From NCBI GenBank assembly GCA_963845245.1, contig CAWJRJ010000011.1:134816-198815 (forward strand): a stretch of DNA of 64,000 nucleotides, read 5' to 3'. The notes under the pieces are model-generated. The model had not been told where the DNA came from. It did not search any database and saw only the letters and a list, made by a program, of their open reading frames with translations. The stretch comes from Nitrospirota bacterium (GTDB lineage Bacteria > Nitrospirota > JACRHJ01). Position numbers and translations under genes: made by a program. Below, in pieces: positions 1 through 21,898 of this stretch (the stretch's first letter is position 1; the number at the start of each line of letters is the position of its first letter).

Positions 1-348
1 GACGAGGCCGTCGCAAAGGTAACCGAGGAGCTTAAGAAGGAAGGCTTCGGCATCCTGACCGACATCGACGTCAAGGCCACCCTTAAGAAGAAGCTGGACG
101 TCGAGTTCAGGAACTACCGCATACTAGGCGCATGCAACCCGCCGTTCGCCTATGAGGCACTCCAGAAGGAGGACAAGATAGGCACGATGCTCCCCTGCAA
201 CGTCATCGTGCAGGAGAAGAAGCCGGGCGTCTGCGAGGTGTCCGCAATCGACCCGGTAGCCTCGATGATGGCGGTGGGAAACTCCGCGCTGGGCAATGTT
301 GCGACACAGGTGCAGGCAAAGCTTAAAAAAGTGATTGAGAGCCTGTAG
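1..348 (+). CDS. DUF302 domain protein (5' truncated by window edge)
   Basis: Frame 1 reads EGFGILTDIDVKATLKKKL...YRILGACNP...IGTMLPCNVIV, typical DUF302 motifs; stop TAG 346-348. Confidence 0.85.
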   Translation, partial: DEAVAKVTEELKKEGFGILTDIDVKATLKKKLDVEFRNYRILGACNPPFAYEALQKEDKIGTMLPCNVIVQEKKPGVCEVSAIDPVASMMAVGNSALGNVATQVQAKLKKVIESL

Positions 349-351
349 CAG

Positions 352-726
352 ATGTTCATACGCGACCTGAAGGACTGCGACGAGTTCATAGCCGGGGACA
401 ACACCCGGCTCCGCGAGCTTTTCAACCCCATCAAAGACCCGCTTGAGCTTCGGTACAGCCTCGCGCACGCACGGCTTGCGCCGGGCCTCGAATCCACTCC
501 ACACAGGCTCAAGACCTCAGAGGTATACTTTATATTAGAGGGTGTAGGCGAGATGCGGATAGACGGCGAGGTGCGCAATGTCGGGCCAGGCCAGGCAATA
601 TACATCCCGCCGCACGCGGTGCAGAGCATAAAGAACATCGGCAATAACGAGCTGGTGTTTATCTGCATGGTGGACCCGGCCTGGAGGCCGGAAGACGAGG
701 AAGTGCTCTATAGCGGGGTAGTTATT
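352..726 (+). CDS. Cupin domain protein (ORF reads through into next small gene; true end probably near 710-715)
   Basis: PHRLKTSEVYFILEG...GQAIYIPPHAVQSI cupin motifs; domain ends near EDEEVL. Confidence 0.75.
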
Positions 727-918
727 ATGAAGATCTGGAAAAATACCGTATGGTCGCCCTGGGCTCTTGGCAGCCTGAAGTGGAGCGGTATGTTCTTCGG
801 CGTTATTGTCGGAGCGTTCTTCCCAGAATTTGTCAGGCAGCACCTCTGGGCATTCATTGCGGCGATGCTCCTGCTTGCCATCAAACCAGTCGTAACATTC
901 TTTCGGGGGGATAATTAA
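727..918 (+). CDS. Small two-TM membrane protein, in frame with the cupin ORF
   Basis: ATG 727; hydrophobic segments GMFFGVIVGAFF and LWAFIAAMLLLAI. Confidence 0.55.
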   Translation: MKIWKNTVWSPWALGSLKWSGMFFGVIVGAFFPEFVRQHLWAFIAAMLLLAIKPVVTFFRGDN

Positions 919-944
919 TCAAGGCCATACATACGGCTTTTTAA

Positions 945-1716
945 TTACATCCCGAGCGTTTTCTGCATTTCTTTGTGTATTTTCGAATTACTCGCCAGTA
1001 TCTCGCTCTGAATCCATGAAATGAAAAGGCCCGCCGCTAAGCGATGTAACCTTGCCCCCGGCCTCGGTAACGATGAGCGTGCCAGCAGCGGTGTCCCAGG
1101 GCTTCAGCCCGAACTCCCAGTAGCCGTCGAACCGTCCCGCCGCAATGTAGCACAGGTCGAGCGCGGCAGAACCGAGCCTGCGTATCCCCTGGCTTGCAAT
1201 CGTCATCTTGTCGAACAGCGGAAGTATCATGTCGGCGCGCTTGTCGAGGTCGTACGGGAAGCCGGTGACGATGAGTGAGTTGGCAAGCTTCGGTGTCTTT
1301 GAGACGGATATTGCCTTTCCGTTAAGGAACGCCCCATTGCCCTTAACCGCATAGAACATCTCGCGCCGAACCGGGTCGTGTACCACTCCCACCAGGACCT
1401 CGCCGTCCCGCTCGTACGCGATCGAGACGCAGAAACACGGGAAGCCGTGGGAGTAGTTCACTGTTCCGTCCAGCGGGTCCACGATCCAGCGTCCGCCGTC
1501 GCCCTTCCATGCGGTCTTCTCCTCTGCGAGGAAGCCGTGGGCGGGGAAGGCATCCTTTATTATCCCTGCGATCAGCGCCTCTGAGGCCTTGTCCGCCTCG
1601 CTCACAGGGTCGCGGCGTCCGGACTTGAACTGTATGTCCTTGAGGTTGCCGAAGTAGGAGAGCAGGAGCTTGCCCGCCTCGCGGGCGGCCTTCTTTGCAA
1701 TGGTGAGTTCTTTCAT
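945..1716 (-). CDS. suhB: Inositol monophosphatase (indel near 1010)
   Basis: WIVDPLDGTVNY and WDTAAG motifs; C-terminus ILASNSKIHKEM lies in another frame ending at 945. Confidence 0.9.
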
Positions 1717-1802
1717 GTCGCAATATTAGCACAACTATAGCGCGGTTCAACTCAAAAACTAACAAAGCTATCGTGGGATTTTAGATGCGATGTATCACCG
1801 GT

Positions 1803-2240
1803 TTAATCGGCCGGGGTTATCTCGGACCTCATTATGCACACACCGGACCTGCCGCCCATGTACTGCCACTCTATGGTGTAAGTACCGTTCCCGTCGATGT
1901 ATCTCGTGACGTCCTGCTCTATCACCGCGTTTATGGGCGGGTTCGACCAGTCGGCGATCCTCTGGTTCAGGGTGGTGCCTTTCTTCTTCAGGAATATCCT
2001 GCCCTGCGTACTCAACAGATTAGGGTCCCAGCTTAGTTCGCCGCGGAATACATATTTGACGCCGGGTTTCCAATCACCGATGTAATAGGAGTAGGTATTT
2101 TCCGTGGAGTTGGGGTCGGCCTTGCCTATGGAGAGCATGCTGCAGGAGGAAGCCTTCTGCCAATCGTCGGCGATAGCGACGCCTGCCGAAAGTATTAATG
2201 CCGTGCAGAATAAAGCAAAGAACTCTATCATACGACTCAT
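1803..2240 (-). CDS. Hypothetical secreted protein
   Basis: 145-aa ORF with N-terminal signal-peptide-like segment ending AIA. Confidence 0.65.
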   Translation of the reverse strand: MSRMIEFFALFCTALILSAGVAIADDWQKASSCSMLSIGKADPNSTENTYSYYIGDWKPGVKYVFRGELSWDPNLLSTQGRIFLKKKGTTLNQRIADWSNPPINAVIEQDVTRYIDGNGTYTIEWQYMGGRSGVCIMRSEITPAD

Positions 2241-2343
2241 ATCTAGCCTCTTGCTATAATTATAACAAAAAAACTGAACTATGAGGTTTGAGGTGCTTCT
2301 TGGGATGGCGGTCTGAAAGAAAGAGCTTCGAAAAGAAAAAGAC

Positions 2344-2387
2344 TTGACATGGGCAAAAAAACTATGCTAATATGCAGATGTGCATAT
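2344..2387 (+). promoter_or_regulatory. Sigma70 promoter with overlapping palindromic operator
   Basis: TTGACA 2344-2349, TGnTAATAT 2365-2373, ATATGCA-N4-TGCATAT 2370-2387. Confidence 0.65.
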
Positions 2388-2403
2388 CGAAAGGGTGATT
2401 TTT

Positions 2404-2721
2404 ATGAAAAAGAATATATCATTTGGTAGTGTCATTTCGGAAAAGCGTAAAAAGTTAAAAATTAGTCAAAAGGACCTTGCCGCAATGATTATGAAAGAAG
2501 ATGCTCAACCGATTTCGCCGCAATATCAAAATGATATTGAGTATGACAGAAGAACCCCATCTTCCTCTATACTTATTGATCAATTCTCCGAAATTTTGGA
2601 TATAGACCGTGATTATCTTTACTATTTAGCTGGCCGTATTCCCGAGGATATTTTTGAAAAAAAGCTTGATACTCAAAACTTCATTGAAGCTATGGTTGCA
2701 TTCCGAAAAAAAATAGATTGA
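2404..2721 (+). CDS. XRE-family HTH regulator (CapH/ImmR-like)
   Basis: FGSVISEKRKKLKISQKDLA...PQYQNDIEYDRR HTH; SD AAGGGTG before ATG 2404. Confidence 0.85.
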   Translation: MKKNISFGSVISEKRKKLKISQKDLAAMIMKEDAQPISPQYQNDIEYDRRTPSSSILIDQFSEILDIDRDYLYYLAGRIPEDIFEKKLDTQNFIEAMVAFRKKID

Positions 2722-2765
2722 CTCGCTATTTTTTTTGTTTACATAATATGCAAATCAGCGGATTA
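2718..2765 (+). promoter_or_regulatory. Candidate Ubl-operon promoter with second operator copy
   Basis: TTGACT-N18-CATAAT; TAATATGCAAATCAGCGGATTA resembles the 2368-2389 site. Confidence 0.5.
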
Positions 2766-2856
2766 GTTGAGCATTTAACCTATAGACAAGGAGGTGGAAC
2801 TGTTATTCGGTTTTTCAGGTGGTTTTTATTAACTTCATTTCTCAAAGGAGTAAAAA

Positions 2857-3120
2857 ATGAAAACAGAAAATTTTGACAAGAATAACGAGACTAAAGAGCA
2901 CGGTCCCAATGTTTCAATATTTATAGATAACGTTGAAAGGCTTATTCACCGTGGGCATCAGTCTGTTGTGGCAATAAAAGAAGCTGGTAAGGTTCCTATA
3001 GCCTACGATCTTGAACAAATTATTGAAGGAACTCTTACCCCCCTCCCCGATGACGGTGCAATAACAATTAAAGGAGAGGAAAAATTTGTCAGTCACCCCA
3101 AGGACAGCGGTTCGTCTTAA
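2857..3120 (+). CDS. Multiubiquitin-type ubiquitin-like protein (BilA/BubA-like)
   Basis: VSIFIDN...LPDDGAITIKGEEKFVSHPKDSGSS; single beta-grasp-like domain with Gly two residues before C-terminus; operon context. Confidence 0.8.
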   Translation: MKTENFDKNNETKEHGPNVSIFIDNVERLIHRGHQSVVAIKEAGKVPIAYDLEQIIEGTLTPLPDDGAITIKGEEKFVSHPKDSGSS

Positions 3121-3131
3121 AGGAGGACAAA

Positions 3132-3476
3132 ATGAATATTCTACCAGATCAGATTGAAGAGTTTAAGACTCTATTTAATGATGTTCAATTTTGCGAGGAA
3201 GGTGGCAATCCTTATTTTTTAATTCCAGGACTTGCCTTACCTATGGGATGCATCCCTAATAAAACCGATGCTTTGCTATGTCCAACTACACGTGATGGTT
3301 ATACTTCACGACTTTTTTTTGCAGAAAAAATTCAAACTAGGCATTCTCTTAATTGGAATGCATTAGGAGTAAGAATCCTAGAGCGCAACTGGCATGCTTT
3401 TTCTTGGAAGATTCCCCAAGAGAATCTACGGTTGGCTCAAATGGTTGGGGCACATCTCAGGGGGCTTAGATGCTAA
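3132..3476 (+). CDS. Prokaryotic E2/UBC-like protein
   Basis: LPMGC..DALLCP..RDGYTSRLFF...NWHAFSWK; lies between Ubl and JAB genes. Confidence 0.7.
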   Translation: MNILPDQIEEFKTLFNDVQFCEEGGNPYFLIPGLALPMGCIPNKTDALLCPTTRDGYTSRLFFAEKIQTRHSLNWNALGVRILERNWHAFSWKIPQENLRLAQMVGAHLRGLRC

Positions 3477-3979
3477 TCAATTTAAAAATTACTAGATCTC
3501 TATTTAACCAAATGTATTCTGATTTAATTAGGCCTCACCCTTTTGCCTATGAAAGGGTTGGGTTCCTTTACGTAAGGCCGGGTTATATTAACAGCAAAAC
3601 GCTTCTATTGCTTGCGACAAAATATATGCCTGTCCCAGACGAAAGGTACATTAAAGATGACAGCGTTGGAGCACGGATAAATTCTACTGCAATAAGAAGT
3701 ACCATGCAAATGATAATGGATTCCTGCGAGGGAGCTTTGCATGTACACATACATCTTCACAATGGGAAGCCCGTATTTAGTAGAACCGATAACCATGAAT
3801 TGAGTAAGCTGATACCGTCGTTAAAAACAGTAGGCGTTAATTTACCTCACGGCGCATTACTGTTAAGCAAGGATAATTTTAACGCAGTTCTTTCTATCCC
3901 GAAACAAAAGAAGCTGAAGGAAGTTAGAAAGTTATCAATCATTGGTAATCCCGTTGAATTTATGGAGGCGAACAAATGA
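3470..3979 (+). CDS. JAB/MPN metallo-isopeptidase (BilC-like)
   Basis: ERVGF Glu plus HVHIH...FSRTD JAMM-like motif. Confidence 0.8.
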   Translation: MLINLKITRSLFNQMYSDLIRPHPFAYERVGFLYVRPGYINSKTLLLLATKYMPVPDERYIKDDSVGARINSTAIRSTMQMIMDSCEGALHVHIHLHNGKPVFSRTDNHELSKLIPSLKTVGVNLPHGALLLSKDNFNAVLSIPKQKKLKEVRKLSIIGNPVEFMEANK

Positions 3980-4785
3980 ATGCACGATACAAGAGACAAT
4001 CTTTTTTGGGAAGACATTCCCAAGCAATATTTGAAAACTGTGTTGTCGGAATTGTTGGATTAGGTGGTGGTGGGTCTATTATAGTTCAGCAACTAGCGCA
4101 TATCGGCTTTCTAAATTATGTTCTTTATGACAATGACATAATTGAAGATACAAATTTGAATAGGCTAGTTGGCGCCACGACGCAAGATGTAAAACATAAA
4201 AGATCTAAAATGATAATTGCGAAAAGGACTATCCAGAGACTACAACCAACGGCACATATAAATGCAAATAATTCTCGATGGCAAGATAATCCTTATCCGC
4301 TGCGGAATTGTGATATTGTATTTGGTTGTGTTGATGGGTTTGCTGAACGCAGGGATTTAGAGGTGTGTACTCGTCGCTATTTAATCCCTTATATCGATAT
4401 TGGTATTGATGTAAATCACATAGAACCTGAACCGCCAGTGTTAGGCGGTCAAGTAATTTTATCCATGCCAGGAGAACTATGCCTTTCTTGTGTTGGATTC
4501 TTAACTGAAGAAAGGCTGGAAAAGGAAGCTGCTAAATACGGAGATGCTGGTGATAAACCTCAGGTTATTTGGGCTAATGGAATAGTAGCTTCAACTGCGA
4601 TAGGAATTGCTATAGAAATTTTGACTGGATGGACCAAAGTAAAAGAAAAAATTTATTATTTAAGTTATGATGCTGCTAAAGGTACAATGCAGCCGCACGT
4701 TAGATTAGCTTACTTAGGCCATAGAAAAGGGTGCATCCATTTTCCTTTAAATCAACTCGGCGACCCAATATTGAAGACTTTATAA
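3976..4785 (+). CDS. ThiF-family E1 adenylyltransferase (BilD-like)
   Basis: RYKRQ, GLGGGGS, DNDIIEDTNLNRL, CLSC and C-terminal CIH. Confidence 0.9.
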   Translation: MNARYKRQSFLGRHSQAIFENCVVGIVGLGGGGSIIVQQLAHIGFLNYVLYDNDIIEDTNLNRLVGATTQDVKHKRSKMIIAKRTIQRLQPTAHINANNSRWQDNPYPLRNCDIVFGCVDGFAERRDLEVCTRRYLIPYIDIGIDVNHIEPEPPVLGGQVILSMPGELCLSCVGFLTEERLEKEAAKYGDAGDKPQVIWANGIVASTAIGIAIEILTGWTKVKEKIYYLSYDAAKGTMQPHVRLAYLGHRKGCIHFPLNQLGDPILKTL

Positions 4786-5388
4786 TTTCAATCGTGAGAG
4801 GAATTCAATATCTTTATCTTGATCTGCTTTTGATATTTTAGGCCTTACATCCCCAAAATATTTTCTCGAACTATCTGTTTGATAAGGAGCTTCTTCATCT
4901 AATTTAAACAGTCTGACTTGACAAATTTTACTTCCAACTACAAGTTCTACCGCGTTATTACCATGATTAAATAATTCTAGAGGAGCACAGCCTCTAAAAC
5001 CGGGTTGAAGCATCGTATTAATATGAATACCAAGCCTTGTATAGCTGCTTCTGGACAGAATATCAGCGTAAACATTCGGAGGCAATGCAACATATTCTAA
5101 TGTAGTAGAAAGAACTACTTGTCCAGGGTAGAGTATGAATTTTTCACCAATTTCTCGTCTTGTTTCTTGAAAATAAGATGAAATACCACGGTTAAAATGG
5201 TCTTGTTCTTTAGTTAGTTCAATGAATGGTTTTCTTGTAAAAATAGAAACCAGGAAATCATAACCAAGACGTAGATCTATAGTAACCGATCCAATTTGTT
5301 TTTCATCAATTAGTGGATCTATAAATAAAGAATCGAAATCGTTGGAGGAAAGTAGTTTTAAAATGTTTTTTTTATTGAGTAGTTCCAT
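4780..5388 (-). CDS. dcd: dCTP deaminase, trimeric dUTPase-like fold (accessory copy)
   Basis: IDLRLG, TTLEYV, SRSSYTRLG, QPGFRG, LELFN, KICQ motifs. Confidence 0.85.
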   Translation of the reverse strand: MELLNKKNILKLLSSNDFDSLFIDPLIDEKQIGSVTIDLRLGYDFLVSIFTRKPFIELTKEQDHFNRGISSYFQETRREIGEKFILYPGQVVLSTTLEYVALPPNVYADILSRSSYTRLGIHINTMLQPGFRGCAPLELFNHGNNAVELVVGSKICQVRLFKLDEEAPYQTDSSRKYFGDVRPKISKADQDKDIEFLSRLKL

Positions 5389-6436
5389 TTTCCCATTTCT
5401 CTTTTATCATTTTATTTCTAATAGATTTTTCCATTAAATCATTAATCATTTTATCCATTTTAAATTCATCATAATCTTTCCAATAATCTTTTCCTACAGT
5501 TTTAATGAGTTCCAAATAATTCCATCCAGCTTCAAAAATACCATGCAATTCCTCGTCATCTTGTATTTCGTATGGCCTTATGTTATCAAAGAAGGCATCC
5601 ACCTTTAGTTCTTTGTATCTTATTTTTAGTTCAAGCAACGGGTATGTCTTTAAAACATTGTTTATCTGGGTTATAATTTCATTGGGTTTTTGTTCTAAAA
5701 AATCGTTTATATTATTCAATCTGTCTCTGGATGAGGGATGAGTGTCTGATTCGGCATCATCTCCACAGATGCTAGCTAAAGATTTAAAATACGCTTTCCC
5801 CGTATAGCTTGAGGCAAATAAATCGGCAAAAAATTCTTTACGATGATTTTTAATTATTGATAGTTTTGGATCGCTGAACAGTTTCGGATCAACCGCGCCT
5901 TGGAGCAATATAGATTTTTCGGTTATCTTATAGTATTGGTCTATAAAATGCCCTAACTCATGATATAAAGGGACAACGTGAAGTGGTTTATGTTGATAGA
6001 TGTTAGGAAACGCTATTTGTATCAGCTCGTCGTTGATTTGGATTGGTAAGAAAGGAGTTATTACTTTGCCCGGATTTATCGTAAAAAAATGAAAATCAGG
6101 AGCTTCTTCTGTCAAAGCTGTCGTCAATGCGCTAGATGAAATTTGCCAATCCCCTAGTGCTTTCTTTAACGCATAAACAATTTCATATGGTATTCTATTA
6201 TTAGAACTGCCACTAAAATATTTTCTTGAGTACCAAAGAATAGTTGTTATATTTTCTGAAATTTGAGACGGTGTCGCCTCATAATTTTTTAATAGATAAT
6301 CTGAGGCTTGTATAATTTGTTGTAAATATGAATAGATTTTCTTATCAAAAAAGGGGACTTGGGAGAGCCTAACTAGTTCCTCATTAATCAATTTTAAATC
6401 ATTTTTACTATGCAGAAACTTCCTCCATTTCCTCAA
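5372..6436 (-). CDS. HEXXH zinc metallopeptidase-like protein (M48-like motifs); start uncertain
   Basis: YHELGH, EFFADLFA, SDTHPSSRDR; no clear TM segments. Confidence 0.7.
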   Translation of the reverse strand: MRKWRKFLHSKNDLKLINEELVRLSQVPFFDKKIYSYLQQIIQASDYLLKNYEATPSQISENITTILWYSRKYFSGSSNNRIPYEIVYALKKALGDWQISSSALTTALTEEAPDFHFFTINPGKVITPFLPIQINDELIQIAFPNIYQHKPLHVVPLYHELGHFIDQYYKITEKSILLQGAVDPKLFSDPKLSIIKNHRKEFFADLFASSYTGKAYFKSLASICGDDAESDTHPSSRDRLNNINDFLEQKPNEIITQINNVLKTYPLLELKIRYKELKVDAFFDNIRPYEIQDDEELHGIFEAGWNYLELIKTVGKDYWKDYDEFKMDKMINDLMEKSIRNKMIKEKWENGTTQ

Positions 6437-6737
6437 GAATATGGCAAGCTATTTTAGGTGTCAAACTATTGTAATCTTTTAACTCAATAATATCATTGCG
6501 AAAACATGTTTTAATTTTAATTTTTAGAGCTAATTCAATTGCTTCTGGATAAATTTTTTCATCAGCATTTTGGGGTTCGGAAATTAATAACTTAACCTGT
6601 TCGAGAACTTTATCAAAATAGAAAATTAACGTCTGAGGAATAGGCTTCTTTTCTACAGTATTTAATAATAAAACTAATTTGAATAGGTTCATCTCAGCTG
6701 ATGTATTAACAGCTGCATTAATTTTTGCTGCTATCAT
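6408..6737 (-). CDS. Hypothetical protein, first gene of the peptidase-dcd operon
   Basis: Strong SD GGAGG before ATG; overlaps next ORF. Confidence 0.7.
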   Translation of the reverse strand: MIAAKINAAVNTSAEMNLFKLVLLLNTVEKKPIPQTLIFYFDKVLEQVKLLISEPQNADEKIYPEAIELALKIKIKTCFRNDIIELKDYNSLTPKIACHILEEMEEVSA

Positions 6738-6798
6738 AAAATTACCTCCCTCTTTTTAAATTAGTGTTATGCAGGAGGAAACTAAACACCTTCATTAT

Positions 6799-6828
6799 AT
6801 TATAGTTAAGAGATACATTTATTGTCAA
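6799..6828 (-). promoter_or_regulatory. Consensus sigma70 promoter of the peptidase-dcd operon
   Basis: TTGACA-N18-TATAAT on minus strand. Confidence 0.7.
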
Positions 6829-6949
6829 ATTTGTACCTCCGTATGCCAGAGAGTAAAAGAGGAGAGGAAAATCTGACCAATTTTATATGACTTTCATTCA
6901 AGAAGCAATATTTTTCTCTTGACAAGGTATTTTTAATAATCACTACAAT

Positions 6950-7636
6950 CTAAACCTCAAACATCCCCGACCAGCGCCTTAGCTCTTTCGGGTCCGATAT
7001 GATTATCTTCTTGCCTTCGGTGCGGATGATGCCGTCTGACTTGAATTCGGAAAGGATGCGGATGACAGTCTCCTGCGCGACGCCGACCATCTCGGATATC
7101 TCCTGGCGCGACAGCGTGAATTCCGGCCCCTGGTCCTCGCCCTTCGAGTTGAACAGGGTCATAAGGAGGCTGGCCACCTTCTCGCGCGCGTCCTTCAGGC
7201 CCAGGTCGCGTATCCTGTCCTGCGCCTTGTTAAGCTCGCGGTTCATTATCTGGATGAACTTCAGGCCGACCTCGGGGTTGTTCTTGAGGAGTTCGATGAG
7301 GTCTTTCTTCTTTATGCAGCAAAGCTCGGCGTCGGCGATGACCTCGGCGGTGCTCTGGTAATGCTCTTCATAGAGCGAGTCGAAGCCAAGCATGTCCCCG
7401 GCGGAGAGGACGTTTATTATCTGCTCGCGCCCGTCTGCGAGTGACTTATAGATTTTTATCGTGCCGGATTTGATGATGTAGACGACGTTGCTGGGGGTGT
7501 CCTCAAGGAATACGATCTTCTTTCGCTTGAAGGACTTCATGTAGATGAGTGCGCTGATCTTGTCAAGCTCCGCGAAGCCGAGCCCGGCGAGTATCGTGAT
7601 GTTCCTTACTACGCAGTTCTTGCAGTCGCAGCCCAT
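6950..7636 (-). CDS. Crp/Fnr-family regulator with N-terminal Cys cluster
   Basis: MGCDCKNC, cNMP-binding domain, SRQEISEMVGVAQETVIR HTH. Confidence 0.9.
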   Translation of the reverse strand: MGCDCKNCVVRNITILAGLGFAELDKISALIYMKSFKRKKIVFLEDTPSNVVYIIKSGTIKIYKSLADGREQIINVLSAGDMLGFDSLYEEHYQSTAEVIADAELCCIKKKDLIELLKNNPEVGLKFIQIMNRELNKAQDRIRDLGLKDAREKVASLLMTLFNSKGEDQGPEFTLSRQEISEMVGVAQETVIRILSEFKSDGIIRTEGKKIIISDPKELRRWSGMFEV

Positions 7637-7637: not shown

Positions 7638-8116
7638 TTATTTCACTTTCTCTGTCGTGCAGGAGGACTCCAGCAGCCGCCTCGCCTTCTCCCGCAGGTC
7701 CTTATCCGAGATATTGGCCAGCGACTCTTCTATATCCTCATGCTCCTGCGGCCGGAGCTTCCTCTTCTTGGGTATGAACTTTTCCTTCTTTATCGGACTC
7801 GCGTCCGGGCGTACAAGCTTGCCTGAGCGGAACTTTATGTCCGTGACGGTGCCCGTCGCCCATGACCGAGTTTATCTTCTCGATCAGGCCGGGCGCCATC
7901 ATCGAAAGCTGGTGCATCCAGACCGGGCTGTCAACCGTGACGGTGAGTATGCCGCCCTTTATCGACTCGGGCAGCGCGTGTTTCGCTATACCAGCCCCGA
8001 CAGTCTTGTCCCAGGCTGCAAGGAGCTTTGCCATAATGCCGCCCCTGCCAAGCCCGTGCTCGCCCATCACCTTTGAGAGTATGTCACCAAGCGTCGATGG
8101 GGTCTGGCATTGCCAT
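7638..8116 (-). CDS. dciA: DUF721/DciA family protein (indels near 8100 and 7850)
   Basis: W...VG..IAKHA.P...GILTVTVDSPVWMHQL motif. Confidence 0.75.
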
Positions 8117-8119
8117 AAC

Positions 8120-9459
8120 CTACACCTTCGGCAGAAGTTCCGCCATTACAAGGCCGGTGAGGAGCTTGGGGTAGAAATAGGTGGACTTCTGCGGCATGAC
8201 CTCGCGCGCAAGGGCCACCTCCTTCACCTCGCGCACCTTCGTCGCGTTCAGCAGGAAGCAGATGTCGAACTCGCCGTTTGCCACCCGCTTTATCGCCAGG
8301 TCGCCGTCTTTTTCGAACTTCACCGGCTGGCTCTCGGCTATCATCTCTGTGTCTATGCCAAGCACCCGCATGATTATCAGCTCGTGGAGGATGGTGACGT
8401 CCAGGTTGCAGTAGACCTCGGAGTACTTGCAGCGCAGAGCCTCCATCACAGGGTCGAGCTCCTTGAGCTTCAGCAGGTAGTATGCCTGCTCGCCCGCGAA
8501 CGTGAAGCCGAAGCAGTGCGCCTTCTTGCCCTGCTTCACAAGGGATTCGAGGAACAGCTTCCTCTGCGAAGGCTCGTAGTCCATCGTGAACGGGAGCTTC
8601 TCTATCGCAAAATATTTCGATGCCCGCTCGAGTATCGTCTCGAGCGACAGGCCCGGCAGGTTCTTCACCAGCCTGTGGGTCGGCAGCACCGTAAGGCCGT
8701 CCTCCTCCATGTTGGCAAGGAACATCGGGACGTAGTTGAACGCCTCGGTGCCGTCCCAATCGCCCCTGCTCGCGGCAGTAGTTACGGAACGCGAGCGCGG
8801 TCTCGTACCTGTGGTGGCCGTCGGCTATGAATATCTTCTTGTCCGCCATCGCCTTGCGCACCGACCCTATGACATCCGGGTCCTTCACCGCCCAGATGCG
8901 GTGATGCGCACCGTCGTCGTCGGTGGCCTCGGCGTCCGCAGGTTTGCCGTGGACGGCTTCCTTCAGGGAGGCGGTGATCTTCTTCTTCGCTCTCGGAATA
9001 AAGCGAGAATATCTGGCTGGTGGATACGCCCGTGACCTTCATCAGCTCGAAGCGGTCCGCCTTTGGCCCCTTCAGCGTTGCCTCGTGCGGAAGGACGACT
9101 TCCTTGTCCCATTCCTCCAGCTTCAAAAGGCATATGAACCCGCACATCCGCTTCGCTTCGCCGGAAGGCGTCTGGTAGTCCACCTCGTAGAAATAGAGCG
9201 CCGGGGCGTCCTCGCGTATCAGCGTCCCCTCCTCCAGCCACTGCTTGATAAACTGTGCCGAACGGGTGTAGCGGTTGTTGCCCGCGGCGTCCCATATCTC
9301 TGCCCTGCCGAAATCCACCCGTACGATGTTCTTCTCGTCCCGCCCGTAGAGCTCGTCCTGGAGCTGGGGGGATATCACGTCATAAGGCGGGGCCACGAGC
9401 TCGTTTAAGTCCAGCCCATCCCCATATCTTATCCCCGAAAAAGCAGCTATCTCCGCCAA
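8120..9459 (-). CDS. DUF1015 family protein (split by indels)
   Basis: APPYDVIS, PHEATL, IADGHHRYETAL, MPQKSTYFYPK across three frames. Confidence 0.85.
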
Positions 9460-9474
9460 TGTCCGATTGCCTCC

Positions 9475-11265
<1,791 letters not shown>

Positions 11266-11287
<22 letters not shown>

Positions 11288-13005
11288 TCCAGGAACTCCT
11301 TTTGTAATTTATCTAAAAGCGCGTAGTCTTTAGTTTCCTCGGCCTGTTTTATCTGAACCTGTAGCTCGTTGAACCTTTTCTGGTGCCTTGCCTGTGAGAA
11401 CCTCTCAACCGCCCCCCTTGCAAAACCCTCCGCATCCTCTATGTCTTCCTTAAGCGCTAGCCGTCCGACAAGTTTCTGCTGTTCATCGTCGAGCGAACAG
11501 ATGAGTTTCGCCACATCTACCGTCCCACCTTCTTTCACTATCCCGAAGACCTTCCTAGCCACCTCTGCCAGTGCCGTGCTCGTGAAATCCTCAGGCACAA
11601 GCTCGCTCACGACCACCTGGGCCGCCTCGGGGTGCTTCAGTATCACCTGAAGGAGCCCTTCCTCTATCCTGTCGAGCGACTCGCCTTTTGGCTTCTCCGG
11701 GCCCTTGTAAAAGCCGGTCCTGCCGGTCTTCTTCCGAAGTTCCTCCGCAAGGGCCGATTCATCCACGGAGAGCTCGTCGGCGGCCATCTTCAGGTAATGG
11801 CTTCGTTCCACGCCGTTCTCGATCTTTGCGAGGATGCCGACTATCCGAAGAGACGCGGCCACCTTGTCTTCTATCGTCTCCGCGCCTTCCGCAGCCCTCT
11901 TTATTACAAAATCAAGCAGTTTGCCCGAAGCCTTAAGCCTCCTGGCCAGCCCCGCCGCGCCTTCCCGCCGCACCAGGCTGTCAGGGTCGTCCCCCTTGGG
12001 GAGGAGCGCCACCTTCGGGACCATGTCGGTGCCCAGGAATATGTCGAGCGTCCTCTCGGCCGCCTTTATTCCCGCCGGGTCTGAATCGAACACCAGAAGC
12101 ACGTTCTTGCTCTGGCGCTTGAGCGCCCGGAGGTGCTGCTGGGTCATCGCCGTGCCCATCGTGGCCACTGCGTTGTCCACGCCCGCCTTGTGGCAGGCGA
12201 TGGCGTCGAAGTAGCCCTCGACTATTACCGAGTAGCCCTTCTTCCTTATGGCCTCCGCGGCCGCGTCCATCGCGTAGAGCGTCTCGCCCTTGTGGAAGAG
12301 CGGGGTCTCCGGCGAGTTCAGGTACTTGGGCATATCGTCGCCCATCGTCCTGCCGCCAAACCCTACAACGCGCCCTCTTATATCCCTTATCGGGAATATC
12401 ACCCTGTCGCGGAAGCGGTCGTACCAGCCGCCGCCCGTCTTCTTTATCGCAAGCCCGGCCTTTTCGGCCATCTCTGGCTGTACGCCTTTCTTCTCAAGGT
12501 GCTTGAGCAGCCCGTCCCATTTAGGCAGGCTGTAGCCGATCGAGAACTTCCCGGCTATCTCGCCCGCCATGTCCCGGGACTCGAGGTATTCCCTCGCCCG
12601 CGCACCATCCTTTGATCCAAGCGCTTTTACGAAAAACTCCAAGGCATCCTGGTTTATCTTCGCCAACGCCTCGTATTCGTCCCTGTTCCTGCTCGCGGCC
12701 GGGTTCGTCTCCGGTATTATTATCCCGGCCCGGTCCGCCAGCCTCCTTACGGCCTCGGGGAAGGTCAGGTTCTCCTGCCTGGTCACAAACCTTACGGCGT
12801 CACCGCCGGCCCCGCAGCCGAAGCAATGGAATATCTGCTTGGACGGGCTGACCGTGAATGACGGCGTCTTTTCCTGGTGGAACGGGCAGAGGCCGAGGTA
12901 GTTTGCGCCAGCCTTCCTCAGGCTGACATACTCCGAAACCAGCTCTACAATATCCGTCCCGGACCGTACCCGGTCGATAATCTCGTCAGGTATAAGACCG
13001 TCCAA
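11266..13005 (-). CDS. dnaG: DNA primase
   Basis: CPFH..CFGC zinc finger, KYLNSPET, TOPRIM EGYFD/DSD. Confidence 0.97.
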
Positions 13006-13076
13006 ATGGGCACCCGACCTTTAATCCATCTAATTTAAGTATATCAAAAATAACAAAAAAACACTTTTATGGGCCG

Positions 13077-15458
13077 TTAGCCCCTGAACTCGACCACCGT
13101 CACGGCGTCCCCGCCATCTTCGAATGCGGGATGCCTGTAGGAGCTGATTGCAGGGTTCGCCTTCAAGCTCTCCCAGACGGCCTTCCTTAGCGCCCCGGTA
13201 CCCCTGCCGTGCACGATGCGGGCCTGGTTCATACCCGACAAAAGGCACTGGTCGAGGAACTTCTCGACCCGCTCCATCGCTTCATCAATGTGCTGGCCTA
13301 TGATGTTCAACTCGATGGCGCTTCCGGTGTAGTCGTCGCCGTCGTTCTCCCGGGTAAGCAGATACGCGCCTGTAGAAGCCGGCTTGGCCGCCTGTTTTAC
13401 GGCACTGGTATGTTCAAGCTCGTCTACCCCTATCGTCACCTTCATGGTGTCGAGCTGCACCACGACCAGGCCCTTTTCCTTCTTTATGCCAAGGACCTTG
13501 CCGGATTTCCTGTATTTAAGCACCTTTACGGTATCGCCCACCGAAAGGGACTCTATCTTGAGTCCGCTCTTTTCAGGAGCTGGCGTGGTCTCTTCAGTTT
13601 CGAGCTCGGCCTTCAAGGCCTGGACCTCGTCGGCCTTTTTCTTAACCTCGCCTCTGTCTGCCTGTTTTTTGCCCAGTTCGTCCAGTTCGCGGAGTTTTAC
13701 ACGTAACGACGAAAGGAGCGAGCTTGCCTTCTCCTTCGCCTTCCTTACCGCCTCGCGGCGCTCCTCCTCGGCCCTTTTTACGAGTTCCTGGAGTCTGGCC
13801 TTCTCTTCCCTGGCCTGTATGACCTCCTGCGCGGCCTTCCGTCTGTCCTCACGTGCCGCCTGCGCCTCTTTTTCCAGCCGCTCGATCAGGGTGTCCAGCT
13901 CGACCTGGTCTGCGTTTCGGGTCTTTGCGGCGGCGTCCACAACTGCCTTCGGCATCCCAAGCCGCTGTGCGATAAGCAGCGCGTTGCTCCTGCCCGGCCT
14001 GCCAACAAGAAGGCGGTAGGTCGGCTGGAGGCTTTCAGAGTCGAACTCGACCGACGCGTTCATCACGCCCGGCGTATTTGCCGCGAACACCTTAAGCGCG
14101 CCGTGGTGAGTGGTAACCACCACCTTCGCGCCGCGCCTGTGCAGCTCCTCGAGTATTGCAACGCCTAGGGCCGAGCCCTCGGCCGGGTCTGTGCCCGCGC
14201 CAAGCTCGTCAAGGAGCACCAGCGTGTTCCTGCCCGCCTTCGCCAGCAGCCGTACTATCTGGCTGATGTGCGAGGAGAAGGTGCTGAGGCTCTGCTCCAG
14301 GCTCTGCTCGTCCCCGATGTCGGAGAATATGTCCTCAAATACCGAGACGACGCTGTCCGGCGAGGCCGGTATCAGCATGCCCGCCTGCGCCATAAGGCAG
14401 AGCAGGCCTATAGTCTTTAATGCTACCGTCTTGCCGCCGGTGTTCGGGCCCGTCACCACGAGGGACGTGAACTCGCGCCCGAGTTTCATGTCGAGCGGCA
14501 CCGTGGAGGAAGCGCCTTTCGCCTTGATAAGGAGCGGGTGCTTCGCGCCCTTAAGCTCGATCACACCGTTTGCCGCAAGCGCCGGCATTGAAGCGCCTAT
14601 CGCGTTTGCGTACGCGGCCTTCGCATATATTACGTCAAGCTCGATGAGCCCGGCGAACGACGCCGAAAGGGCTTCGCCCACCTCTCTTACCGTAGCCGTC
14701 AACTGCCAGAGTATCCGTTCGACTTCCCGCTTCTCGTCCACTTTCATCTGGACAAGGCGGTTGTTCAGCTCCACCGTCTTCTCTGGCTCCACGAAGACCG
14801 TAGAGCCGGAGGTGGAGTGGTCATGCACTATCCCCTGGAGGTAGAGCTTGAAGTTCGGTTTGAGCGGCAGTACGTAGCGGTCGCCCCGCATCGTTATTAT
14901 CGGTTCCTGGACCGCCTTGCCATACGCGGGGCTCTGGATTATCTCTTCCAGTTCCTTGTTTATCCGGGAGCGGGTCTGTGCAAGGCTCCTGCGGATGCGC
15001 TTCAACTCAAAACTCGCAGAGTCGAGCACCTCGCCTTCGCTGCTTATGGCGTGGTTTATCTCAAACTCCAGCGGCTCGAACACACCTAGAGTGGCCGCCC
15101 TGGCTGAAAGCAGCGGGCATTCCTGTCTCGCCTTCGAGAGCGCGCCCTTTATAAGCCGCGACGTCCTGGCTACGGATAGTATATCAAGGAACTCTTCAGG
15201 CCTGAGCGCGGCGCCTTCCACTGCGGACTTCTTCAGCGGGACAGTTATGTCCTTAAGACCCGATATGGGGAAGTCGCGCCGGGCCTCTAAGTATCTCCGT
15301 AACTCTTCGGCCTCTTTAAGGGAACGCTCGACCTCTTTCGGGTCGGAAGACGGGATAATCGTCTCCGCCGCAGCCCGGCCCGGTTCCGATGATGCATGGC
15401 CGGCAAGCAGGTCGCGTACCTTATAAAATTCCAATACCCTTAGGGTATGTTCATCCAT
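13077..15458 (-). CDS. mutS2: MutS2 endonuclease/ATPase
   Basis: TGPNTGGKT, DELGAGTDP, C-terminal Smr HGRGTG. Confidence 0.95.
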   Translation of the reverse strand: MDEHTLRVLEFYKVRDLLAGHASSEPGRAAAETIIPSSDPKEVERSLKEAEELRRYLEARRDFPISGLKDITVPLKKSAVEGAALRPEEFLDILSVARTSRLIKGALSKARQECPLLSARAATLGVFEPLEFEINHAISSEGEVLDSASFELKRIRRSLAQTRSRINKELEEIIQSPAYGKAVQEPIITMRGDRYVLPLKPNFKLYLQGIVHDHSTSGSTVFVEPEKTVELNNRLVQMKVDEKREVERILWQLTATVREVGEALSASFAGLIELDVIYAKAAYANAIGASMPALAANGVIELKGAKHPLLIKAKGASSTVPLDMKLGREFTSLVVTGPNTGGKTVALKTIGLLCLMAQAGMLIPASPDSVVSVFEDIFSDIGDEQSLEQSLSTFSSHISQIVRLLAKAGRNTLVLLDELGAGTDPAEGSALGVAILEELHRRGAKVVVTTHHGALKVFAANTPGVMNASVEFDSESLQPTYRLLVGRPGRSNALLIAQRLGMPKAVVDAAAKTRNADQVELDTLIERLEKEAQAAREDRRKAAQEVIQAREEKARLQELVKRAEEERREAVRKAKEKASSLLSSLRVKLRELDELGKKQADRGEVKKKADEVQALKAELETEETTPAPEKSGLKIESLSVGDTVKVLKYRKSGKVLGIKKEKGLVVVQLDTMKVTIGVDELEHTSAVKQAAKPASTGAYLLTRENDGDDYTGSAIELNIIGQHIDEAMERVEKFLDQCLLSGMNQARIVHGRGTGALRKAVWESLKANPAISSYRHPAFEDGGDAVTVVEFRG

Positions 15459-15515
15459 TTTAAAAAATCATAAGGGGCGCCCCCTTCATGAGTGCCCCCC
15501 TTTCAAAAGCAGACC

Positions 15516-15607
15516 TTACTTTTCTTTCACGTGAAAGAAAAGTAACAAAAGAAAGCGAATTTAATAACGAAAGTTTTTGGCTCCACCTTTTTTCCCAAAA
15601 AGGCGGA
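15516..15607. repeat. A/T-rich hairpin+mirror-tail repeat, inverted pair
   Basis: 30-bp palindrome 15516-15545 plus tail CAAAAGAAAG; partner 15574-15607. Confidence 0.85.
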
Positions 15608-15614
15608 AAGACCC

Positions 15615-16058
15615 TCAACCTAATAATTCTTTTACCAGCTCGTTTACGAGCTTGCCGTCCGCCTTGCCCTTCACCTTCGGCATGAGCGCCTTCATAACCT
15701 TGCCCATGTCCTTCGCGCCCGCGGCCCCGGTCTCGGCTATAGCTTCCTTTATAAAGGCCGCGACCTCGTCTTTTGAGAGCTGCTGCGGCAGGTATTCTTG
15801 TATTATAACCAGCTCCGCCTTCTCCTTGTCCGCCAGGTCCTGGCGGCCACCCTTCTCGTACTGCTCGATCGAGTCGCGGCGCTGTTTGGCGGCGGTGTTA
15901 AGGACGGACAGTACACCCTCGTCGTCCAGCTCCTTGCGCTCGTCTATCTCCTTGTTCTTGATCGAGGAGGTAATAAGGCGAAGTGTTGACAGCTTCAACT
16001 CGGCACGCGCCTTCATGGCCGCTACGAGGTCGGCTCTGAGCTTCTCTTTTATTGACAC
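15615..16058 (-). CDS. yqeY: GatB/YqeY domain protein
   Basis: AMKA...KQRRDSIEQY...YLPQQLS...DMGKVM. Confidence 0.92.
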   Translation of the reverse strand: MSIKEKLRADLVAAMKARAELKLSTLRLITSSIKNKEIDERKELDDEGVLSVLNTAAKQRRDSIEQYEKGGRQDLADKEKAELVIIQEYLPQQLSKDEVAAFIKEAIAETGAAGAKDMGKVMKALMPKVKGKADGKLVNELVKELLG

Positions 16059-16134
16059 ATCACACCTTTATCTTGTTGAATTTTCTGGAAAAACACTGGT
16101 TCAGGATGTGCGCATACTCTAAGTTTAGGCAGGA

Positions 16135-16163
16135 AGTATACTCGGGGGGAACAGAGAAGTCAA
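16135..16163 (-). promoter_or_regulatory. Promoter of yqeY-mutS2-dnaG-rpoD
   Basis: TTGACT-N17-TATACT. Confidence 0.65.
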
Positions 16164-16188
16164 GCGCACGGGAAAGATAATTTTATTT

Positions 16189-16848
16189 TTATTTCTGTCT
16201 CGCCTTTAGTTCCTTATATACCTCGGATACCTCGACCCCCGACTCCGCAAGCATCACGAGGGTGTGATAGAGCAGGTCAGCCGTCTCTCCGACGATCTCC
16301 TTCTTCGAGCCGTTCTTCGCGGCGATTACCACCTCGGCAGACTCCTCGCCCACCTTCTTCAGGATCTTGTCCAGTCCTTCGTCAAAGAGCTTGTTGGTGT
16401 ACGAGCCTTCCTTCGGGCTGGTCTTCCTGCCCTTTATCGTCGTGAACAGCTTGTCCAGGACGTCGCTACCGGAATAAACGTCCGATACCTCGAACACCTT
16501 CTCCCCGGCCTCGCGTATCCCGTCCGCCTCGATCTTGGTATAGAAGCAGCTCCGGTTCCCGGTATGGCACGCGCCGCCCTTCTGGATAACCTTGAAAAGC
16601 AGGCAGTCGGCGTCGCAGTCGTAGGAGGCCTCCTTTACGGCCTGGGTGTGGCCTGAGGTCTCGCCTTTGAGCCAGAGCTTGCCGCGCGAACGGCTCCAGT
16701 AGGTGCAAAGCCCGGTCTCAAGCGTCTTTTCCAGCGATTCCCGGTTCATGAAGGCCATCATCAGGACCTCGCCGTTCTCGAAAGTCCTGCACGATTGCGG
16801 GGATGAGGCCGTTGCGTCGAATTTCAATGTATTTATGTCGAACATCAT
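16189..16848 (-). CDS. hisIE: Bifunctional PR-AMP cyclohydrolase/PR-ATP pyrophosphatase
   Basis: [25 protein letters not shown]; compensating indel pair near N-terminus. Confidence 0.93.
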
Positions 16849-16861
16849 TACCTCTTTATTA

Positions 16862-17018
16862 GCTTCTCGGGCTCGCTCCCGGCGATTCTCTCGGGTATTT
16901 CTAAGCTCGCTCACTGCGCCAGCAAAAACTCGCTTCGCTCAGACAGTTTGCTGTCGCAACGCTCACTTCACTAACAAATACCAACTCGGTCATCGCAAGT
17001 GCGCTCGCGCCAAGAGGC
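16862..17018. repeat. Long imperfect hairpin, related in inverted orientation to 36005-36182
   Basis: Shared core CTAAGCTCGC..TGCGCCAG.AAAAACTCGCTT.GCTCAGACAGTTT. Confidence 0.75.
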
Positions 17019-17024
17019 GTTGGC

Positions 17025-17507
17025 TTATAATTTATATCCTATCTTCCTCAGAAACTCTTTGCGCTCCTTAACATCGGCCGGCCCCTCGACGCCTTTCGGC
17101 GGGAAGCCGTCCACCACGCCCATTATGCCGCGACCCATCTCGGTCTGGGCGACTATCACCTCGACCGGGTTCGCCGTGGCGCAGAATATGTTCGCCACCT
17201 CCGGGCAGGCCTTAATCGCGTTCAGCACGTTTATCGGGAAGCAGTCCTTCATGACTATGCAGAAGGAATGCCCGCAGGCGATGCTCTTTATGTTCTCTAT
17301 CGCGGCGGCCTTCATGATCGCGTCGTTACCCTCGGCGCGTATCAGGCATGGCCCGGAGGCCTCAGAGAACGCGACACCGAATTTGCCCGCCGGTACACCC
17401 GACACCATTATTTCGTACAAGTCCTCTGCCGTCTTTATGAAATGGCTCTGCCCGAGGATTATGTTGCAGTTCTCAGGGATTGCAAGCTTGACTGCGTGAA
17501 AGTCCAT
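17025..17507 (-). CDS. Adenosine-specific kinase family (DUF355)
   Basis: NIILGQSHFIKT, FSEASG, CATANP, GRGIMGVVDG. Confidence 0.88.
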   Translation of the reverse strand: MDFHAVKLAIPENCNIILGQSHFIKTAEDLYEIMVSGVPAGKFGVAFSEASGPCLIRAEGNDAIMKAAAIENIKSIACGHSFCIVMKDCFPINVLNAIKACPEVANIFCATANPVEVIVAQTEMGRGIMGVVDGFPPKGVEGPADVKERKEFLRKIGYKL

Positions 17508-17525
17508 AAGATCCTCCCTTAGACC

Positions 17526-17612
17526 GTACTTTTCTTTCATTTGAAAGAAAAGTACCAAAAGAAAGCTATGCCAAGTTTTTTGGCGCACACCTTTTTTACA
17601 AAAAAGGTGGCG
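17526..17612. repeat. A/T-rich hairpin+mirror-tail repeat, inverted pair
   Basis: GTACTTTTCTTTCA-TT-TGAAAGAAAAGTAC-CAAAAGAAAG; partner 17576-17612. Confidence 0.85.
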
Positions 17613-17614
17613 GT

Positions 17615-18484: not shown

Positions 18485-18501
18485 AAAAACCTCTATTAAA
18501 G

Positions 18502-18537
18502 TTCTTTGGCGCTACCTTTCTTTCAAGAAAGGTGGCG
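18502..18537. repeat. A/T-rich hairpin+mirror-tail repeat, single
   Basis: TTCTTTGG-CGCTACCTTTCTT-TC-AAGAAAGGTGGCG. Confidence 0.8.
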
Positions 18538-18540
18538 AAG

Positions 18541-19892: not shown

Positions 19893-19957
19893 ACTATCAT
19901 CTCCAGTAACGCCCCCTCAGTCCTCCTCTTATGTCTAAGAGGGTATAGGGGGATTTA

Positions 19958-21796: not shown

Positions 21797-21807
21797 TTTA
21801 ATTTTGT

Positions 21808-21898
21808 CACTTTTCTTTTACAAAAAAGAAAGTGCCCCAAAGAAAATGTTAATTTAGAAATAAAATTTCTTGGGCCGCCTTCTTTACAAAGAAGGCGG
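21808..21898. repeat. A/T-rich hairpin+mirror-tail repeat, inverted pair
   Basis: Hairpin 21808-21834 plus tail; TTTCTTGGG-CCGCCTTCTTT-AC-AAAGAAGGCGG. Confidence 0.85.

Follow-up and report, generated by a model that had tools for sequence, protein, structure and literature searches.

Organisms from bacteria to humans are known to fight infection by draining their nucleotide pools. To our knowledge, every described defense system built on a deoxycytidine triphosphate (dCTP) deaminase uses the zinc CDA fold. In the published account, the defensive enzyme is a single 576-amino-acid (aa) protein that joins a zinc cytosine-deaminase domain to an N-terminal kinase domain (10.1101/2021.04.26.441389). 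The locus considered here lies in a 64,000-nucleotide stretch, hereafter the window, of a Nitrospirota bacterium (assembly GCA_963845245.1, contig CAWJRJ010000011.1, positions 134,816 to 198,815 of the forward strand), and it consists of a sigma-70-type promoter, a ribosome-binding site, and three overlapping genes on the minus strand at 4780-6828. The genes encode a small protein of no known family, a putative soluble zinc metallopeptidase, and a Dcd-family protein with the trimeric, dUTPase-like fold (Table 1). The proposed output is the one described for the DCD of Tal et al. and AvcD, namely, that dCTP would be deaminated and phage replication left short of it, and both those enzymes and the module adjoin other defense systems. 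Unlike DCD/AvcD, the module enzyme has the metal-free Dcd/dUTPase fold, comes with two partner genes, and has no PADLOC match to the known family. The window Dcd carries neither a zinc deaminase nor a kinase domain, and the contrast with known anti-phage deaminases drawn in the first reading of this DNA (the original prediction) therefore holds. We propose that the three genes form one mobile module, in which the peptidase and the small protein hold in check, and then release, a trimeric-fold dCTP deaminase that would serve as an immune effector. We consider this proposal probable, if only just; the protease-gated defense envisaged in the original prediction is partly supported.

The AT-rich operon with overlapping genes, a consensus promoter, and a strong Shine-Dalgarno sequence is present just as it had first been described. 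The GC content of the module is 0.318, against 0.558 at window positions 1-2240, 0.578 at 7640-20000, and 57% for the genome. The small gene overlaps the peptidase gene by 29 nucleotides (nt), and the peptidase gene overlaps dcd by 17 nt; the TTG start assigned to the peptidase is consistent with the N termini of its homologues. Promoter-like sites are no more frequent across the region than expected (20, against 16.4 ± 3.9 in shuffled sequences), so only the perfect TTGACA-18-TATAAT site was counted. The module forms the right half of a longer AT-rich insert, which spans some 4.7 kb (roughly 2260-6940, GC 0.35) and is flanked by housekeeping genes (GC 0.56-0.58), and no convincing tRNA genes or flanking direct repeats mark the ends of this island. 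The maximum 19-residue Kyte-Doolittle values of all three proteins are too low for a membrane helix (1.07 for the peptidase), and this profile fits a soluble peptidase.

By its profile scores, the module Dcd is a bona fide member of its family. It exceeds the curated threshold of TIGR02274 in NCBIfam (124 bits against a cut-off of 92.8), matches the Pfam DCD family (PF22769) at 7e-29 (101.3 bits against 27), and carries DCD/dUTPase Pfam domains only. When it is aligned with the solved enzymes of Escherichia coli (1xs1) and Mycobacterium tuberculosis (2qxx and 4a6a), R113-S114-S115...R118 and E138 fall on their RSS..R and LE motifs, with SRSSYTRLG and PLELFN facing GRSSLARLG and VLEFYN of 1xs1. 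We take the catalytic residues of the E. coli enzyme to be S111, R115, and E138. Across 69 module-linked Dcds, R113, S114, S115, and E138 are invariant and R118 is retained in at least 90%, so the catalytic-type motifs picked out in the original prediction stand up both against solved enzymes and within the family. Based on these intact motifs, the module Dcd is predicted to be catalytically competent. Scores against the mono- and bifunctional types in the Protein Data Bank (PDB) were near equal (2.3e-16 against 6.5e-16). The housekeeping Dcd of E. coli and the bifunctional Dcd:dUTPase of M. tuberculosis belong to the same curated family and have the same catalytic residues. Unlike these enzymes, the module Dcd falls in a separate clade, is mobile and accessory, is coupled to a peptidase, and ends in an extension of about 12 residues with the pattern D.DL..L, which is common to the module-linked Dcds and absent from the housekeeping Dcds compared. 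This conserved tail is a candidate for the element that is gated.

The peptidase appears from its motifs and profiles to be a new family, one that is M48-like without belonging to M48. Across an alignment of 98 members, the invariant residues comprise H159-E160-L-G-H163, E201-x-F-x-D205, and H233-P234...R239 (in the original prediction, a soluble protein with HELGH, ExxAD, and THP..R motifs, which this alignment upholds), together with part of a C-terminal NDLxEKSIRN motif. We take the trio of HExxH, the third-ligand Glu of ExxxD, and HPxxxxR to be the motifs of M48-type gluzincins. In build, the protein has an N-terminal three-helix bundle, a core with the HExxH, ExxxD, and HPxxxxR motifs, and C-terminal helices bearing NDLxEKSIRN. 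The family is not small: a word-indexed search found 174 related proteins, and when 1.84 billion representatives were searched exhaustively with a profile, 821 clusters had an E value of ≤1e-3, 340 reached 1e-10, and 238 reached 1e-30. The window protein itself had no match in Pfam, NCBIfam (E ≤ 0.01), or PADLOC at the thresholds used, and its score against Peptidase_M48 (PF01435) lies below the gathering score (13.1 bits against a threshold of 20.3; E, 0.087). Sub-threshold Pfam M48 matches (E ≤ 1) occur in 41 of the 98 members, the best at 8.8e-4, and they fall exactly on the stretch from ExxxD to HPxxxxR. The AlphaFold2 (AF2) model of the peptidase has a predicted local distance difference test score (pLDDT) of 94.2. 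A wide VIA-align search placed it near BepA (6sar; Z 6.9, 159 residues aligned, root mean square deviation [rmsd] 5.0) and ZMPSTE24 (6bh8; Z 6.8, 167 aligned, rmsd 6.8), rows that stand amid many three-helix-bundle rows of equal Z. The M48 (HtpX/Ste24/BepA) and M56 (BlaR1) gluzincins share with the peptidase HExxH, the downstream Glu in ExxxD, and HPxxxxR, and BepA, ZMPSTE24, and BlaR1 are its weak fold matches. In contrast to them, it scores below the Pfam threshold, has no membrane segments, and has its own N-terminal helical bundle and NDLxEKSIRN C-terminal domain.

Lit (peptidase U49, prophage e14) is a zinc protease switched on by infection, and its likeness to the module peptidase is in concept only. 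Clusters bearing U49 or M48 were the nearest among the named ones in an Atlas feature search (0.80-0.81), which is a lead only, and U49 was not found among the matches listed (25 of the 49 Pfam families of the 98 members). Kinship with Lit was rejected: hhalign of the 98-sequence profile against Lit of E. coli K-12 gave a probability of 4% (P = 0.0097), and the alignment consists of 42 misregistered columns away from HExxH, that is, no detectable relationship.

Is the unit conserved? A scan of one genome per species returned 117 peptidase relatives, of which the best 80 loci were kept. In 77 of these, a Dcd homologue follows the peptidase on the same strand, usually overlapping it; the homologue is intact in 74 and split into two open reading frames (ORFs) in 3. 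The remaining three loci comprise two that stop at a contig edge and one (L033) that truly lacks a Dcd, having a small protein and peptidase at 5706-7107 and no Dcd within 6 kb downstream. The loci come from Pseudomonadota, Bacteroidota, Thermodesulfobacteriota, and a metagenome-assembled genome (MAG) of Spirochaetota. The conserved peptidase-dcd pair, which the original prediction had proposed to look for in gene neighborhoods, is accordingly found.

The third gene is conserved more in position than in sequence. The 109-aa protein has no match in Pfam, NCBIfam, or PADLOC, in keeping with its first description as a protein of unknown family, and an Atlas search gave no usable hit. A profile of it finds a homologue directly upstream of the peptidase in 44 of the 80 loci; among the other 36, mostly from Bacteroidota, an ORF of 70-160 aa occupies the same position in 31. 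The two sets of small ORFs align end to end, weakly (P = 9.5e-4, 97 collinear columns, HH probability 22%). A gene for about 100 aa therefore precedes the peptidase in at least 75 of the 80 loci, and from the conserved pair together with this upstream gene we conclude that the unit is a three-gene module.

Physical coupling of the products is suggested by two further observations. With the small protein as the scored partner, a three-chain complex prediction scored 0.57, whereas none of three controls exceeded 0.01; contact agreement between runs was at least 50% and the partner pLDDT at least 69. In calibration, 116 of 157 solved complexes passed, as did 2 of 215 mismatched pairs, and scores of ≤0.60 belong to only 18 of the 157 solved complexes together with both passing mismatches; the prediction was run with its own alignments and three chains, unlike this calibration. 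It lends weak support to an assembly of the small protein with its partners. Replacing the peptidase alone, with the Dcd left in place, brought the score down to 0.00, so the small protein, if the complex is real, would sit on the peptidase and not on the Dcd. Secondly, a natural 631-aa protein (P0302) carries the peptidase at residues 11-397 and a DCD domain at 425-586; it is the sole fusion among the 150 representatives listed, and a word-indexed search for longer fused forms found none.

The module is conserved, mobile, and accessory. A maximum-likelihood tree splits 75 module-linked Dcds from 10 housekeeping Dcds on a branch with an SH-aLRT of 99, and branching within the module clade cuts across taxonomy (Leptospirales beside Desulfopila, Pantoea beside Dechloromonas). 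The closest relative of the window module is in a Geobacter MAG (L004), with a Dcd that is 71% identical. The peptidase is found in none of 30 relatives of the window's genome (11 from its own family and a further 19 from its phylum), and 10 of the 11 same-family genomes have no Dcd over the cut-off. Taken together with the separate branch, these absences bear out the view that this is not a vertically inherited housekeeping dcd. The original prediction had also proposed to look for a separate housekeeping dcd in the genome, and here the outcome is mixed. In the window's assembly (2.88 Mb, 90% complete) no Dcd over the cut-off exists besides that of the module, the other match being a dUTPase; with 10 of the 11 same-family genomes having none over the cut-off, the lack of a housekeeping Dcd is normal for the lineage. 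In contrast, 4 of 5 other carrier genomes do encode another Dcd, which outscores that of the module (157-228 bits, against 109-117); the Geobacter carrier is the one without. The module occurs in 16 plasmid records, 11 of which are E. coli or Salmonella plasmids of about 90-95 kb. It is carried by 8 of 5,426 complete E. coli genomes, with every copy plasmid borne. It was found in 3 contigs of a viral collection, and 50,697 phage records held no match to the peptidase. One of the E. coli plasmids, NZ_CP122828.1, has the module at 21078-23070; these non-mobilizable plasmids of about 90 kb carry a Ref nuclease gene, Icd-like and ash genes, and a HigA/RelE pair as module neighbors and, from their annotation, look like P1-type phage-plasmids.

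What lies beside the module in other genomes? When 774 ORFs flanking the module in the 80 loci were clustered and identified by Pfam and PADLOC, several recurrent families emerged (Table 1). Judged by these domain matches, they are the Type I Bub gene set with its CapH/CapP regulators, as the operon type (formerly 6E) and regulators are defined in 10.1101/2024.11.21.623953. The module itself is outside the gene set described for Bub (6E/DUF6527). Of the 56 loci whose flanks reach 5 kb or more on each side, 24 carry JAB-E1. The arrangements vary: 11 alphaproteobacterial loci read bubAB-bubCD-bubE-small-peptidase-dcd in one direction; in Polaromonas and Nonlabens, for example, the module is followed by capP/capH and then Bub; in Sphingobacteriaceae, Bub diverges from capH-capP-small-peptidase-dcd; and in two loci and the window the two units are convergent. 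Mapped onto the Dcd tree, the Bub-neighbor state changes at least 13 times (26 with, 30 without, and 19 unscored for short flanks), and Bub linkage is therefore not one inherited block. A likeness can be drawn to type II CBASS with Cap2/Cap3 (E1-E2 and JAB regulators), in which an autonomous effector is found with or without a ubiquitin-like conjugation apparatus, and by analogy the module may stand in a similar position; unlike type II CBASS, it has no cyclase and no nucleotide second messenger. According to the discoverers, the targets and function of Bub are unknown and a "stress response" is left open (10.1101/2024.11.21.623953 and PMC13373217), and by the account of the 2026 CapK/CapS paper (PMC13373217), protection against phage has yet to be demonstrated for Bub operons.

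Known defense genes are the other frequent neighbors. For the 49 loci that lack Bub genes, a scan in two batches covered neighboring ORFs of 120 aa or more within 3.5 kb (25 loci with 140 proteins at E ≤ 1e-10, and 24 loci with 120 proteins at E ≤ 1e-15), and clear known systems adjoin the module in 13. The first batch contained BREX with PD-Lambda-4, AbiE, type III restriction-modification (R-M), type I R-M with PrrC, SoFic, and a retron reverse transcriptase. The second contained type I R-M (four loci), a CBASS-like pair of cyclase and TIR, IetAS with Lamassu LmuA, and a fragment of a CDA-type dCTP deaminase. TniQ of Tn7-like elements flanks two further non-Bub loci, and a CapP-like gene flanks one. 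The defense neighborhood expected in the original prediction is thus seen. The deaminase fragment is in L059, where a 153-aa ORF (4410-4871), about 1.5 kb downstream of the module, matches part of the PADLOC dCTPase model (1e-30).

We know the module under no earlier name. Its three proteins matched 0 families of PADLOC v2.0.0 (2023) at E ≤ 0.01, and full-text literature searches found no paper on it, in line with the original statement that no named system has this makeup. The words "deaminase" and "dCTP" are absent from two Bub preprints and two supplementary files of one of them, from Iyer et al. 2006, from the CapH/CapP preprint, and from the CapK/CapS paper. The DefensePredictor paper lists "a dUTPase" among its predicted, unvalidated defense domains (Fig. 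6F). An overlap with the module is possible, and the accessions of the E. coli module copies do not occur in the papers searched or in those of its supplementary files that were searched.

In total, these observations are consistent with the following mechanism. We speculate that the three proteins, co-made from overlapping genes, would assemble in a latent state, the small protein sitting on the peptidase. Infection or DNA damage would then provide a signal that activates the peptidase, and in many genomes this signal could be relayed by the adjacent Bub-type conjugation operon and/or by CapH/CapP derepression. The active peptidase would strip off an inhibitor, which could be the small protein or else the conserved tail at the Dcd C terminus. 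The freed Dcd would convert dCTP to dUTP, leaving phage DNA synthesis starved of dCTP and the pool flooded with dUTP/dUMP, a dCTP-depletion outcome like that of the unrelated CDA-fold defensive deaminases. Could the module be a portable effector cassette that is plugged into different immune sensors? It would then be wired to Bub in about 40% of the well-flanked loci, where conjugation of a ubiquitin-like protein (Ubl), or its removal, would control the peptidase and, through it, the Dcd. We offer this extension tentatively, as possible and on balance doubtful.

Several points weigh against the proposal. The 80 loci include many close kin that were counted as independent (for example, the 11 alphaproteobacterial loci of one arrangement), and their genes were called with a crude in-house ORF script on flanks of ≤6 kb. 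The complex prediction, besides the weakness of its support, yields no interface, and the P0302 fusion may be a Rosetta-stone link or may reflect a frameshift error in sequencing the overlapping genes. Bub is absent nearby in 32 of the 56 well-flanked loci, the scan at its thresholds detected no clear known defense system within 3.5 kb in 36 of the 49 non-Bub loci, and the module adjoins the four-gene cassette found beside it in the window (see below) in only 1 of 73 loci of that cassette. For the peptidase, Foldseek of the model against the PDB found nothing at E ≤ 0.001 (best E, 0.23), and the 98-sequence profile gave one chance match to PDB sequences (E, 0.35); with no significant match to any characterized family, its substrate is not guessable. 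Finally, the module Dcd is the only one in its genome, and a metabolic contribution here has to be allowed for.

Could the roles be reversed, with the peptidase as the effector and the Dcd-like protein as a sensor of an abnormal nucleotide (modified dCTP or excess dUTP, for example) that triggers Lit-like cleavage of an essential host or phage protein? Protease effectors are common in defense. No other component is as large or as well conserved as the peptidase, which has N- and C-terminal domains of its own, and in L033 the small protein and peptidase occur although the Dcd is missing. However, the catalytic residues of the deaminase vary little or not at all across the 69 sequences, as expected of a working enzyme and not of a ligand sensor, and no relationship to Lit was found. 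We regard this arrangement as unlikely.

The module might also serve in stress or addiction, as a DNA-damage-induced modifier of the deoxynucleotide (dNTP) pool or as a stabilizer of plasmids and islands resembling a toxin-antitoxin (TA) system, with the Dcd as toxin, the small protein as antidote, and the peptidase as the enzyme that turns the antidote over. CapH/CapP-type regulators respond to DNA damage according to both papers (10.1101/2024.11.21.623953 and PMC13373217), whose authors, as noted, leave a stress response open for Bub, and the E. coli/Salmonella plasmids of about 90 kb carry the module near HigA/RelE genes. Set against this is the company of known defense systems at 13 of the 49 non-Bub loci. 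Stress and immunity readings overlap, many abortive-infection systems being TA-like, and nothing here separates the two; taken as a whole, including its TA-like version, the stress or addiction role strikes us as improbable.

Still less probable, and in our view very much so, is a metabolic set of mobile elements, in which the Dcd supplies dUTP/dTTP for replication of an AT-rich element or a phage-plasmid, with the small protein and peptidase as unrelated passengers or maturation factors. Phages and AT-rich elements often carry Dcd, and the plasmids with phage-like annotated genes, the 3 viral contigs, and a genome without another Dcd speak for such a role. Yet the phage records held no match to the peptidase, the genes are inseparable in 77 of the 80 loci, relatives of the window's genome manage without any Dcd over the cut-off (10 of 11), and neither thymidylate synthase nor other nucleotide genes recur among the conserved neighbors. 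An ordinary housekeeping dcd with chance neighbors, to which only its standing as the sole Dcd over the cut-off in a 90%-complete assembly points, is scarcely credible beside a separate clade, absence from relatives, foreign GC, and a three-gene architecture shared across phyla.

If the proposal of a released dCTP deaminase is right, the module would be a second, convergent route to dCTP depletion, on the housekeeping Dcd fold under proteolytic control, and would show a core metabolic enzyme turned into a weapon. If the portable-cassette extension is right as well, it would supply the first effector for Bub and a measurable phenotype. The Bub linkage offers a concrete hypothesis for a pathway of unknown targets and is to us the most interesting lead, and the E. 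coli plasmid copies open the module to direct testing.

Table 1. Features of the module and of the adjoining cassette in the window, and families that recur within 6 kb of the module in 80 loci
Feature	Position	Strand	Evidence
Sigma-70-type promoter, TTGACA-18 nt-TATAAT	6799..6828	-	12/12 consensus matches, sequence read
Ribosome-binding site GGGAGG	6745..6750	-	7 nt ahead of small-gene ATG at 6737, sequence read
Small helical protein, 109 aa, no known family, predicted peptidase partner	6408..6737	-	ORF, locus profile
Soluble zinc metallopeptidase (putative), 354 aa, TTG start	5372..6436	-	ORF, motifs, AF2 model
Dcd-family (dUTPase-like fold) dCTP deaminase (predicted), 202 aa	4780..5388	-	TIGR02274, PF22769, PDB alignments
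Helix-turn-helix (HTH) regulator	2380..2721	+	HTH_3 8e-6; PADLOC HTH_VI 1.3e-7; L004 module-side HTH homologue 3.5e-5
Candidate ubiquitin-like protein, 87 aa	2857..3120	+	Directly ahead of E2-like gene in 60/73 cassette loci
BubB-like E2 (predicted), 114 aa	3132..3476	+	AF2 pLDDT 92.4; fold match to BubB
JAB/JAMM-like peptidase, 169 aa	3470..3979	+	E28, H91-x-H93-x-H95, S104-x-x-D107 in translation
E1-like adenylating enzyme (ThiF family), 269 aa	3976..4785	+	ThiF 2.3e-28; 3' end overlaps dcd by 6 nt
Ubl-E2 fusion (neighbor)			Multi_ubiq + Prok-E2_E; 21/80 loci
JAB-E1 fusion (neighbor)			Prok-JAB + ThiF; 26/80 loci
DUF6527 (neighbor)			PF20137; 14/80 loci
CapP-like, Peptidase_M78 (neighbor)			PADLOC capP 8e-16; 22/80 loci
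CapH-like, HTH (neighbor)			PADLOC capH down to 5e-29; 14/80 loci

The left part of the AT-rich insert holds a ubiquitin-like/E2/JAB/E1 cassette with an upstream HTH gene (2380-4785), convergent with the module. The E2 assignment rests on a fold match, because pairwise BLAST of the 87- and 114-aa proteins against canonical BubAB found nothing; neither has a Pfam Prok-E2_E or Ubl match. The best PDB match of the E2 model is Citrobacter BubB in 9eae_C (Foldseek probability 1.00, TM score 0.66, E 2.1e-3), followed by eukaryotic E2/UEV rows, and its profile matches the E2 region of BubAB weakly (P = 0.004). The JAB protein is homologous to the N-terminal half of JAB-E1 fusions (L078, 6e-26), and the E1 is homologous to the E1 half of the BubCD-like proteins that lie beside the module in 26 of the 80 loci. 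The cassette thus shares with Type I Bub a ThiF-type E1 with a JAB peptidase and, by the fold match, a BubB-type E2; unlike Type I Bub, its JAB and E1 are two genes, and its Ubl and E2 are not detectable with Pfam. No PF20137 match, the mark of the DUF6527 protease BubE, was found in the whole assembly (90% complete). The gene order of the cassette is conserved across many phyla (73 loci, 72 with JAB, 70 with E1, and 60 with the 87-aa protein). The Geobacter MAG locus also has an HTH gene and a Bub-type set beside its module, of another subtype and in another orientation.

Several smaller observations concern the cassette and the Bub loci. In the window, dcd and the E1 gene converge on a 6-nt overlap of their 3' ends (4780-4785), with no terminator-like site between them. 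Ubiquitin-like modifiers usually end in Gly; the natural C terminus of the 87-aa family (the window and L108-L178) is conserved as ...SHP(K/R)D..(S/A)S, not Gly. A Nitrospiraceae MAG (L178, 11034-11889) has a gene for a 192-aa Dcd-fold protein (KSSLARCG, TLELMN) after an 89-aa ORF, convergent on the same type of cassette and without the peptidase, and so presents a second, different Dcd pairing. In L015 (2020-2898) and 8 further alphaproteobacterial loci, a 203-aa GNAT-like gene lies between capH and bubAB, as does an 88-aa ribbon-helix-helix gene in 5 loci; the two look like a toxin-antitoxin-like pair inside the Bub-module locus. In a Crocinitomicaceae locus (L078, 2962-3543), the protein in the Ubl position has two DUF1508 (YegP-like) domains; YegP homologues are reported downstream of capK-capS in 57 cases by the 2026 CapK/CapS paper (PMC13373217).

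Elsewhere in the window's own genome, a 543-aa frame (L002, contig C20, 1417-3048) joins an M16-type peptidase, a Gly/Arg-rich linker, and a dUTPase, and it may be a fusion, a missing stop, or an assembly error. Within the window, further dips in GC at 38001-40000 (0.463) and 60001-62000 (0.483) suggest other foreign inserts.

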